The notes under the pieces are model-generated. The model worked only from the letters and a program-made list of their open reading frames with translations, was not told the origin of the DNA and did no database searches. DNA of 64,000 bases. Origin: Dictyostelium discoideum. Taxonomy: Eukaryota. The stretch covers positions 4,160,001 through 4,224,000 of the forward strand of contig CM000151.3 of the NCBI GenBank assembly GCA_000004695.1, read 5' to 3'. This document shows positions 41,629-63,274 of the stretch, piece by piece. The position numbers were made by a program, and so were the translations under genes. The first letter of the stretch is position 1; each line of letters begins with the position of its first letter.

Positions 41629-42892
41629 TTTTGAATTTTTTTTTAATTATTTAATTATTTTTTAAAACTATATATTTTGAAAAAATAAAAATTAATTTTT
41701 TTCTTTACTTGTTGTTTTTTTTCTTCTTTAAAAAAAAAAAAAAAAAAAAAAATAAAAATTATTATTATTTATTATTATAATAATTATTATTATTTAATTT
41801 TTTAAGGGTTTGGTCAATTGATGGATAAATAAATAAATATAATAAAAAAACAAAAATGGGTTGTCTTTATATAGAAAAACTATAAAATGTTTTTAAATAA
41901 AATTATAAATATGAAAAATAAAATAAACAAACAAAATAATAATAATAATAATAAAAATAAAAATAATTAAGGATCAGATTGGTTTCATTTATATGTTGAG
42001 TGAGTTAGTGAGAGTGTGTGGGCGGGTTAGTGTGTGTATTTGTGTTTAGGGAGAGAACCAAAACCAAAATAATAAAAATAAATAAAAAAAAAAAAAAGAT
42101 ATTTATGTATGTATAAGTGTGTGGATATGTGTGAAAATCAATTGTACTAACCTATATATACTTGTGTTTAAAGATTTATTTGATTTTTCAATAAAAGATA
42201 TATTCTAGATTAGGATATTTTTTGTTTTTTTTATACTTTTTTGGTATTATTTTATATATCACCCCCAATTTTTATTATTAAAAAAAATAAAACAAAATAA
42301 AATAAAATAAAATAAAATATTTTAAAAGATATATTATAAAAAATATTATATTTCCACCCTAGGGAAAATCAATTAAAAAATGAAAAAATTCAAAAACTGT
42401 GATATCATTACAAAGGTCATTTTTTTATTTTTTAATTTTTTTATATACAAATTAATATTACCTTTAGTAATAAAAATATAATTTGGATCTTTTTTTTTTT
42501 TTTTTTTTTTTTTTGTTTTCATTAAAATAATAAAAATAAAAATTAAATAAAAAGTGGTTATAAAACAATACAATCAATCAGTTTTTGAAATAAAAAATTA
42601 ACACATACAATTAGTAATAGTATAAATACAAAAACCCCACTTAAAAAATTATATTTTATTTTTTTATTTATATATCTTTTAACCACTTTACACGTATACA
42701 CATAATATTTTTTTCATTTTAAATAAAAAAAAAAAAAGAGAAAAATAATAAATGAAAATATTTTCTTTTAATTTAAATAATAATAATTTAAATATTATTT
42801 AAATTTATATTTATTTATTTTTTATATTTATTTATTTTTTATTTATATTTTTTTTTTTTATTTTTTATTTTTTATTTTTTTATTTTATTTTT

Positions 42893-53175: not shown

Positions 53176-53442
53176 ATGAGATCAGCTACTAAATTATTTA
53201 AAAATTTGAGCAAAAGTGTTGTTCAATTAAAAACTGTTAAACCAGTATCATCATTAAATTTTGGATATATCAAAACTAGACAATTTTCAACATCAACTAC
53301 TGACTCATCAAATTTATTTTTAAATAACAATAATCAATTTCAAAATTTTACTTTCCCAACAAAACGTAGGTTTTATTTATTTATATATTTAATTATTTAT
53401 TTTTTTCATTTTGTTTAGAAAAAAAATAAAAAAAATAAAAAA

Positions 53443-54537: not shown

Positions 54538-55322
54538 ATGGTTCAATCCTTTTTTGTAATTCTCTCATCATATTTTTTTTTTTTTTTTTTCATTTTTCAT
54601 TTTTCACTTTCATTTTTCATTTTTTTTTAAAAAAAAAAAAAGCGAGGGGCATTTCGCCACACTTTTTAATTTTTTTTTTTTTTGATTAATATTTTTTTAA
54701 TAATACTGTTTTAAAATGTGTTTGTATATTAATCAGTGTCACTATAAGATTTTTTTTTTTTTTATTATAATTTTTTTATTTGAAAACTTTGGGTGTCAGT
54801 AAAATTTCTAAAACTAATTGACAAAATTCAATTTGTTTTTTATTATTTAAGCAATCTTTTTTTTTTTTTTTTTTGTATTATTATTTTCCAAACCATTAAC
54901 AATAATTATTATTATTATTTAAATTGTTGATTATAAAATTAAATTAATGATACGCACATTTTTTTTTCTTATTGTAATTTGGACAAAACATTAATTTGGA
55001 CTAAAGTTAAACACCTTGAAAGGGATTTCCAAAGTATAAGAACCCAAAGTGAATTAAATGACGAGTTGATTGAGAAATACCAACTTTAACAATAATTATA
55101 GGAACAAAACTTGGTCTTCCATAAGGTAAAACTGTTTGTCTCACAGAAAAAATTAATAAACAACCACAAATATATTTTAAAAAATGAATGCACTGAACTC
55201 TATTGTCCTTTGAAGCAATTAGAAGGAATTAATTCAATAAGTTTAGGAATTTTCAAATTAAATAAAATACTATGAGTTTTTATTTTATTCAAAATGAATT
55301 AAAAATCAAATTAATAGAGTCG

Positions 55323-55707: not shown

Positions 55708-57739
55708 TTAATTGGTTTTATTAAATAGTAGTTCAAATTTTGAATGAATTTCAATATTGTCAAATTTAAGATAATTTCCAATTTTAATGAAAAGTGATTT
55801 ATTGAAAATAGTTGGATAATTATTTAAAAATAAAATAAAAGACATTTTATCATTTTCAATTAAGCAACAACATAAAATGTGATGTGGAATGATTAATTTA
55901 ATTTTTATTTTTAATTGGTTTTCAAATACATTTAGAGGGAAACCATTTGATATTTCAAGTTCAACTGAATCCTCACCTATTACCAAAAAACCTTTTTTTA
56001 TTTCTTCTAAGATATGATTTGAAATAAAATTTGATATTGGTGGAGAAAAATAACCATTTACTTGGATAGATGGATTAATTTTAATTGCTTCTTTTATCAT
56101 TCTAATAAATGTATTAAAATTATCAATCATATGAATATTATCAAAATATGAGTTTTTAATTTCATCATTTATAATAAAAAATTCTGGACCTGAAAGTGCA
56201 ATTAGAAATAATGAGAAAATACCTGGATGATTAACACCATTTTCTTTAGATATTTTAACCATTTCATCAAATGAAATTATCGATGCTTTTCTATTTATAC
56301 TTTCCATTAATATTTTATATTGATTAACCAATTTTGAACTTTTTAAATAAATGTAATTATAATTAAATTCAGAAAATAATGAATCTTTATAATATTTAAA
56401 AACTAAATTCATTATTTTATCATTTGTAATTGATCTGAAAATAATTTTACAACTTTTTTTTTGCATCGATTGCATTTGCTTTGAAAACTTCTTCAATTAA
56501 GTATAAATTACAAGTTAAAAGAATATTTTTAATTATATCAATTTCAAAAGATGATCCTCGAAGACTTGAATTACCATTTGATTTGATTTTATTATTTCTT
56601 ACAATTTCAAGTAACCGACTTGTATAATTCTTTAAGATTTCTAAATTATTTCTAAATGTTACTTCCATTGTAAAAATTTTTTTGGCACTAAGATTAACCA
56701 TTGATTCATTTTCAACCAAGTTTTTAAAATATTCATTTAAATAAAAATGAAATTCAAGATCATGTTTTGAATTATATAATAAATATTTTTCATTAATTAA
56801 TTCTATTATTTTTTTCTTTTGAATATTAAAATTCTCTGGGAAAATTAAATGATACATTTGAAGTGCCACGACATTTTTACATTGAACAATTATGGTAATC
56901 CATTTATTAAAATCACCAAAATTTATTTGACCTTCTCCACTACCACAAAATGATGTATTAGAGAATAAAAATTTGAAATAATTTCTATTTTTAAAATCAT
57001 TTTCTCTAATGAATTGGATTGTTTTGATAATTTCTTTCTCACTTTTTGAAAGATCACCTTTGTTTATTGAATTGGCAATTCCTCTAGCTAAGGATTTCTC
57101 TAAGTTTTTACAATTTAATTTATAAAAAAGATTTTTATAAATTTCATAAGCTAAAAATTTATTCCTAAAAACTGTCAAATAGAGAGATTTTGTATTATTA
57201 TCTTGATTGTTTGTGTTACATGGAATATTTTTTATTTCTATTAAACTTGAATTTGATCCAATAAGTATCTCCTCTGAACTAAAAGATAAAACTCCACCAT
57301 CAATCAATTGATTTATTGAAATATTTAAAAAGTTACTGATCTTCTTAAATTTTTTATTATTCTTTGATAACTCTATAGTTGTAATAGGAATTGAAACAAA
57401 TTTAAAAATACTATTTATATAGGTTAAAGTCTCTTGAGTGAGATTTAATCTTTGATTTTCCCATTGAAACATATGTAAATAAACTATACAATTTGGAATC
57501 AATCCATCTTTAAATTCTCTTTTTCCAATGTAATTGAAATAAAATTGATTATTATCATTTCCATTAAAAAATTGTTGGTTTTGGTAACAATCAAAACACA
57601 AATCATTGAAAACAAAAATAAAATCAATTTCAGAAACTTTTTTTGGAAATGAATCAGATGTTAATATATATTCACCAACATTATAAATAAAAATATTCTT
57701 TATTAAATTAAAAGAACCATTCTTTGATGTTGACTCCAT
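55708..57739 (-). pseudogene. Large hypothetical gene of about 675 codons split into two overlapping ORFs (56447..57739 and 55708..56496) by a 1-nt frameshift in a T9/A9 homopolymer at 56454-56462. It is either a recent pseudogene or a sequencing error in the homopolymer.
   Basis: The upstream ORF ends '...LIEEVFKANAIDAKKKL*'. The downstream ORF begins 'MKKFSKQMQSMQKKSCKIIFRSITNDK...'. Removing one A from 'GCAAAAAAAAAGTTG' joins them as '...NAIDAKKSCKIIFRSITNDKIMNL...'. Both halves are otherwise intact, and no intron signals flank the junction. Confidence 0.55.
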
Positions 57740-57953
57740 TTTTAATTTTTAAAAAAATTTAAAATTAATTTTATTAATTAAAATGAATAAAAAAATTTTA
57801 AAAAATTATAGTGTGTGTGGTTTTAGGATCCTAAAAAAAAAAAAAAAAAAAATTTCAAAGATTATAGTTAAATGTTATAAAAATGTAATAAGCTTTATTT
57901 TTATTTGGGAAAATTTTAAAAAAATAACATTTTTACAAAATTTAAATTTGTGT

Positions 57954-62431: not shown

Positions 62432-63274
62432 TTAATTTATTTATTAAAAAAAAAGTATTAAATGAAGAAGATTCAAATATTAAAGTTAAATCATTATTAG
62501 AAAGTGGATTAGGTAAAGGTCAATTTTTAATATTAAGATATTTATTTGAATTATTAAATGCAGTTTCAATCAATTGTAATGTTAATTTTATGAATTATCA
62601 AAATTTAGCAATTTGTTTTGCACCATCTTTAATTCAATCATTTGATTTATCTTGTTATGATGTAATTGAAAGATTAATTGAAAATTATCATTCTATATTT
62701 GGTGTAGTTGTACCTGTTGTTGATAATTCTTCAAATGTTTCTTCATCATCTTTAGCACATCCAATAATTGGTGGTAAATCCGAAACAAATGTTTCTTTAA
62801 ATAATTTAACTGTAACAATATTAGATCATGGTGATATAAATAATAATTCAAATAGTAGTAATAATAATAATAGTTCATCATCATCATCACCATATAAAAA
62901 ATCACCAAAGCCATCACCAAAATCATCACCAAAACTTAATAATAGGAATAGTATTAGTCCAAAATTAAGCTCAAGTACTAGTTTTAGAAAAAGTATCAAT
63001 TTAAGTAGTAATAGTATAATGATTTCAGATGAAGTTCAACAAGAGCAACAGAACCAACAACAACAACAAGATGAACAACAAGATGAACAACAAGATGAAC
63101 AACAAGATGAACAACAAGATGAACAAAATTCAAATAGTACTAGTATTAATACATCAAGTAGTAGTATAACTAGGCCAAGAAAAGGTTCCACTGTACAATA
63201 TTTAAATAGAATTAATACTTGTCGTAGACCAAGTTCTTGGACAAATAATAATAGAATTAAACAACAACAACATC

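Follow-up and report, generated by a model that had tools for sequence, protein, structure and literature searches.

The question raised by this locus is whether two adjoining open reading frames (ORFs) are two short genes, one gene that has been broken in the AX4 strain of Dictyostelium discoideum, or one intact gene that was recorded with an error. The window, by which we mean the whole stretch of 64,000 nucleotides analysed, has a G+C content of 21%. From this base composition, stop codons are estimated to make up ~9.5% of random codons, and ORFs of 430 and 262 codons are therefore far beyond chance. The two ORFs lie in different frames of the minus strand and overlap by exactly 50 nt (Table 1). 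Inside the overlap, the AX4 coding strand reads GAT GCA AAA AAA AAG TTG TAA, such that the last three residues (KKL) and the stop codon of the 430-aa product are products of the frameshift, and the 3′ half of the gene lies in the +1 frame, which is fully open in AX4. Removal of one A gives GAT GCA AAA AAA AGT TGT AAA ATT... and a continuous ORF of 2031 nt, which encodes 676 amino acids followed by a stop codon, with no interruption. A preliminary description of the locus had reported two long ORFs in different frames with a 50-bp overlap, as the ORF listing and translation also give, and had proposed that deletion of a single base from the A9/T9 run at 56454-56462 joins them, which the repaired 676-aa translation bears out. 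The single long ORF that it described stands as well, while its count of 675 codons was off by one or two, a trivial discrepancy.

Table 1 Coordinates of features at the split locus and in the neighboring peroxiredoxin gene (positions in the window).
Feature	Position	Strand	Remarks
Whole gene, single exon, 676 aa if the run is A8	55708..57739	-	Repaired translation
5′ ORF, 430 aa	57739..56447	-	ATG start; TAA stop at 56449-56447
3′ ORF, 262 aa from first TTG	56496..55708	-	Frame closed immediately upstream of 56496
A9 homopolymer (T9 on + strand), site of the extra base	56454..56462	-	Inside the ORF overlap
Premature TAA	56447..56449	-	Two codons past the A-run, in the shifted frame
GT..AG segment, 19 nt	56453..56435	-	Just past the A-run
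GT..AG segment, 16 nt	56450..56435	-	Just past the A-run
AX4-unique SNPs	53232, 53274, 53286	+	In exon 1 of the peroxiredoxin gene (gene start, 53176); compared with ACTFIT, ACTFIW and ACTFIY

Both halves of the gene are annotated separately as hypothetical genes on the 8.48-Mb AX4 chromosome 2. An exact-sequence look-up identified the 430-aa ORF as XP_644054.1/Q555L2 (DDB_G0274861), and the 3′ ORF, when started from an internal ATG at 56412 (234 aa, 56412..55708), is an exact match to XP_644053.1/Q8MP15 (DDB_G0274543). A literature search found no paper that mentions DDB_G0274861 or DDB_G0274543, nor one that cites the SRR or GCA accessions. In exact-product look-ups, the 430-aa, 262-aa and 255-aa products were found in no assembly besides the reference, and no contig bearing A9 was found in the searched sequence collections except the reference itself.

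The same locus is intact wherever else it was recovered. The repaired protein matches KAM9945209.1, an annotated protein of 676 aa (ACTFIT_003463; GCA_054883475.1), from end to end with 100% identity, and exact-product look-ups found this AX4-haplotype product in ACTFIT only. In a 12-kb alignment, A9 versus A8 is the sole difference between AX4 and ACTFIT within the 2,032-bp gene. The run is also A8 in six Logan read assemblies from separate sequencing runs of a third strain (SRR28564543 and SRR26869256/57/58/66/68), the contigs of which are taken to be genomic because they end in intergenic poly-T/A tracts. This third strain carries a haplotype of its own, with 9 SNPs in 2.3 kb relative to AX4 and two amino-acid changes, while ACTFIT differs from AX4 by 1 SNP in the same 2.3 kb around the gene and is of the AX4 haplotype. 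Finally, the run is A8 in ACTFIW, a diverged D. discoideum isolate with 85% protein identity, and A6 in ACTFIY, a cryptic sister species, where GCT AAA AAA TGT is likewise in frame. In total, three strains other than AX4 (ACTFIT, the Logan strain and ACTFIW) contribute eight independent sequences that read A8. The preliminary description had viewed the locus as a single gene broken by a 1-nt homopolymer indel and had pointed to the orthologous locus in relatives as a check; both parts hold, given that the repaired protein equals an annotated 676-aa protein, that other strains have A8, and that both ACTFIW and ACTFIY are in frame.

Conservation around the A-run agrees with a single coding unit. 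In a protein alignment, the frameshift falls within the most conserved block of the family, NAIDAKKSCKIIFRSITNDKIMNLVFKYYKD, in which IDA..IFRSI..IM.LVFKYYKD.LF is invariant even in the ACTFIZ paralogues at 46-47% identity. With the A-run inside this block, the split does not mark a place where one gene would naturally end and the next begin. Protein identity within the discoideum complex is 82-85%, and dN/dS calculated by the Nei-Gojobori method from AX4 (repaired), ACTFIW and ACTFIY is 0.41-0.54 overall. Calculated for each half of the gene, dN/dS does not exceed about 1, with a value of 1.01 in one pair (3′ half) and 0.39-0.56 otherwise. The comparisons show one protein-coding gene under moderate purifying selection, and the AX4 reference is the intact state plus one A.

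The encoded protein has few relatives. A Pfam search with the repaired protein gave nothing significant, with WH_DRP at E = 0.03 being far below the cut-off. A word-indexed search of 5.8 billion proteins found five relatives, each in an assembly of D. discoideum or D. cf. discoideum, and a profile search that ran exhaustively over 1.84 billion cluster representatives gave seven matches, which comprise the family itself, the fragments ACTFIW_005365/005366, a FNIP-repeat protein from D. dimigraforme that matches residues about 10-97 only, and a D. purpureum protein (181 aa) with a weak match at E = 5e-4. In hhalign, a single FNIP repeat of the D. dimigraforme protein aligns with residues about 15-50 (probability 85% over 36 columns). 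Paralogue P0004 scores 19 bits against Pfam FNIP (PF05725), below the 21-bit cut-off, and the AX4 protein has no Pfam match to FNIP. These alignments hint at a faint, sub-threshold FNIP-like repeat at the N terminus. AlphaFold2 with a 6-sequence alignment yielded a largely α-helical model of low confidence (pLDDT 46.9, pTM 0.29), too low for fold comparisons to be informative, from which the protein is predicted to be mostly α-helical. As far as these searches reach, it is an orphan that evolves fast and is confined to the D. discoideum species complex. Our best guess, with little to support it, is that by analogy with other FNIP-repeat proteins it could be an intracellular repeat/helical scaffold protein.

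The gene adjoins a peroxiredoxin gene in AX4, ACTFIT, ACTFIW and ACTFIY, and the family occurs as one to two tandem copies. Several copies are incomplete. In ACTFIW, the orthologue (551 aa) is without residues about 25-168, ~145 N-terminal residues, and the adjacent paralogue is annotated as two fragments of 164 and 305 aa (ACTFIW_005365/005366). In ACTFIZ, two copies lie in tandem (ACTFIZ_009246/009247; 46-47% identity), one of which is truncated at its C terminus; P0003 has an internal deletion and P0004 is truncated. In sister lineages, the family has both duplicated in tandem and decayed, which is a birth-and-death pattern.

Why, then, does the AX4 reference differ? The explanation that we consider likely, judging from the other sequences, is that A9 in AX4 is a miscount in the Sanger-era reference. 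In this explanation, the locus would be one intact single-exon gene of 676 codons with a true internal run of A8 (GCA AAA AAA AGT), recorded as A9 in the AX4 chromosome 2 reference. The extra base would shift the frame into a TAA two codons later, and automatic annotation would then have produced two gene models, DDB_G0274861 and DDB_G0274543. AX4 cells themselves would carry A8. The discrepancy is confined to the homopolymer, of which only the length is altered (A9 versus A8 at 56454-56462), and its surroundings speak to the quality of the reference. Over 28.7 kb (window positions 35260-64000), AX4 and ACTFIT differ by ~16 SNPs. Five of these (60061, 57749, 53286, 53274 and 53232) can be clearly polarized with ACTFIW, ACTFIY or the Logan strain, and AX4 is the odd one out in all five; a sixth, 60252, points in the same direction through a poor alignment. 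Three of the AX4-unique SNPs fall within 55 bp (53232-53286). The presence of AX4-unique polarized SNPs nearby suggests local errors in the reference, among which A9 would be one more reference-unique discrepancy.

Several of these differences deserve description in their own right. Two of the SNPs at 53232, 53274 and 53286 replace Asn with Lys (AAT to AAA) in an N-terminal presequence-like region and one is synonymous, and each of the three lengthens a local A/T run in AX4. All three are probably reference errors, and the annotated AX4 peroxiredoxin protein is affected. Position 57749, at -10 from the ATG at 57739, is A in AX4 alone and G in ACTFIT, the Logan strain and ACTFIY. The putative promoter or 5′ UTR is polymorphic at 57824-57832, where AX4 and the Logan strain have AGGATCCTA and AAATCCTG, respectively. 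Position 62648 is another SNP listed with the AX4-unique ones. Further single-base differences between AX4 and ACTFIT, which are unpolarized, are found toward the left end of the compared region, at 42058, 42064, 42486, 35424, 35427, 36496 and 39624.

Published strain histories make this number of differences informative. AX2-214 was sequenced along with isolates described as 'diverged from AX4', with assemblies from Nanopore plus Illumina data (Holland et al, 2025; PMC12745789). Those isolates are CR116C and OT3A together with M4B and S6B, each of which may be a cryptic species (Holland et al, 2025; PMC12745789). In organism name and in divergence, ACTFIT, ACTFIW, ACTFIY and ACTFIZ agree with this set, and by elimination ACTFIT is probably AX2-214. 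Ax2 and AX4 share an identical axeB deletion and thus a common axenic ancestor (Bloomfield et al, 2015; PMC4374526), from which it follows that real differences between them should be very rare. The measured mutation rate is 2.9e-11 per site per generation, and mutation-accumulation lines of AX4 have in common 1,916 single-base differences from the reference, which were put down to reference errors or to differences in the ancestor (Saxer et al, 2012; PMC3466296). With a shared axenic ancestor and such a low mutation rate, the ~16 differences in 29 kb are best read as reference errors.

The reliability of ACTFIT in homopolymers was also considered. Of 320 runs of 5-10 nt in 18.4 kb, 2 differ in length between AX4 and ACTFIT, and the remaining 8-, 9- and 10-mers agree, which indicates that ACTFIT does not generally under-call short runs. 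The sole short-homopolymer discrepancy besides 56454-56462 in the 18.4 kb is at 54777, in non-coding sequence ~240 nt downstream of the peroxiredoxin stop codon (54537), where AX4 has A7 and ACTFIT has A8. Across window positions 35260-64000, runs of at most 13 nt almost always agree between the two, and runs of at least 14 nt are very often 2-13 nt shorter in ACTFIT than in AX4 and never longer. This shortening looks like long-read under-calling or genuine instability, and either way the lengths of long runs are unreliable in one of the two assemblies.

The extra A may instead be real, the outcome of a very recent replication slip from A8 to A9 in the NC4/AX3/AX4 lineage or in the sequenced clone, which we regard as unlikely while giving it appreciable weight. 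The protein would then be cut at residue 427 (plus KKL), and the locus, a dispensable gene, might be a fresh unitary pseudogene or null allele, a doubtful but serious proposition. Homopolymer slippage is the commonest real mutation, the site is a classic target for it, and 9-mers are normally resolved by Sanger sequencing. The lesion is disabling relative to the intact orthologues, in a gene that evolves fast (dN/dS about 0.4-0.5) and belongs to a tandem birth-and-death family whose visibly decayed members imply that loss of the gene is evidently tolerated. No further degeneration has followed within the gene, which is otherwise identical to the ACTFIT allele and has its 3′ frame open. The lack of other lesions fits a change that is only decades old; equally, the lack of a second lesion means that the event is either extremely recent or not real. 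The bias of ACTFIT toward shorter runs, seen at 14 nt or more, matches the direction A9 to A8, and A8 in ACTFIT is for this reason inconclusive for the NC4 lineage when taken alone. However, were A9 real in the whole lineage and 'repaired' by the ACTFIT assembly, the repair would be a coincidence that struck one of 19 nine-base runs. If ACTFIT is AX2-214, the change must date to a few decades of culture despite the rate of 2.9e-11 (PMC3466296), and the ~16 base differences in the same 29 kb, AX4-unique where polarized, cannot all be real.

A third way to reconcile the two frames would leave A9 in the DNA and correct it in the RNA or during translation. Both GT..AG segments just past the A-run are 3n+1 nt long, so that splicing out either the 16-nt or the 19-nt segment would restore the frame, and the 16-nt segment starts with GTAAAA and ends with TTTTCAG. 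Lengths of 16 and 19 nt are nevertheless far below known Dictyostelium intron sizes, the mean intron reportedly being about 146 nt. Moreover, the segment codes for the conserved SCKIIFR in all intact orthologues, where the run is A8 and no splicing is needed, and the annotated 676-aa protein of ACTFIT includes SCKIIFR. We therefore rejected a tiny intron, on length and on the conserved coding of SCKIIFR, as having next to no chance of being correct, and judge the GT..AG segments to be a coincidence. As an observation on annotation, these segments at 56435-56453 could mislead splice-aware gene predictors. A genuine A9 could alternatively yield both 430-aa and 676-aa products by recoding, through slippage of RNA polymerase (A9 to A8) or through +1 slippage of tRNA-Lys on AAA AAA AAG. 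The shift needed is a net +1 within 56450-56496, Lys-tRNA re-pairs perfectly on the A-run, and A9 can give low-level transcriptional slippage, as in bacterial IS elements, Thermus dnaX and yeast Pol II reporters. Yet the two-frame arrangement is found in no orthologue or paralogue, all of which are in frame at the A-run; a +1 stimulator is absent, as the 0-frame stop codon follows two codons after the run instead of occupying the A site; and the RNA fold downstream is unremarkable (-18.4 kcal/mol, z = -1.8, with 12 of 200 shuffles as stable). We consider recoding very improbable, and it had already been ranked least likely among the options initially put forward, a ranking with which the failure of the two-frame arrangement to be conserved in any orthologue accords. 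A -1 slip on A AAA AAG was rejected as well, that frame closing after about 17 codons. If A9 is real, incidental low-level slippage might occur, and nothing suggests a programmed mechanism, for which we see only the slimmest prospect. It is similarly far-fetched that A9 is real in AX4 and the coding A-run serves as a reversible on/off (contingency-like) switch, partly bypassed by slippage of RNA polymerase II, in a gene family that evolves fast, duplicates in tandem and is specific to the species complex.

With a miscounted reference as the preferred reading, the split locus is most probably an artefact of the reference and would be an ordinary matter of annotation and sequence quality, without mechanistic novelty; failing that, the split would be a trivial strain-specific null allele. 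For annotation, a single 676-aa model should replace DDB_G0274861 and DDB_G0274543, or the pair should be marked as a frameshifted allele. RefSeq, UniProt and EukProt have already taken over the truncated models, and knock-out, expression or orthology work that treats DDB_G0274861 and DDB_G0274543 as two genes would be misleading. More broadly, some bases in this region are unique to the AX4 chromosome 2 reference, and two of them change amino acids of the peroxiredoxin.

The locus can be compared with several known systems. One N-terminal stretch of the AX4 protein faintly resembles a repeat of the FNIP-repeat proteins (PF05725), but the conserved helical region (180-676), which makes up ~85% of the protein, has no detectable relatives outside the discoideum complex, apart from the weak D. 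purpureum match. Genes expressed by slippage or +1 frameshifting, such as bacterial IS elements, dnaX, antizyme and yeast Ty1, EST3 and ABP140, have in common with it overlapping frames, a net +1 shift and a slippery A-run. In contrast to those genes, the arrangement in AX4 is not conserved, lacks an adjacent stop codon or rare-codon stimulator, and has no notable RNA structure. With unitary pseudogenes and strain null alleles the locus shares a lesion that shifts the frame within an A-run, in a gene that is dispensable, evolves fast and has intact orthologues; unlike unitary pseudogenes, however, the AX4 gene has neither a further disabling mutation nor excess divergence, and the event would be decades old at most. 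The likeness to genes split by homopolymer errors extends to one extra base in an A/T run of the AX4 gene, adjacent ORFs in different frames with an overlap of a few dozen nucleotides, intact sister sequences, and other reference-unique discrepancies nearby.
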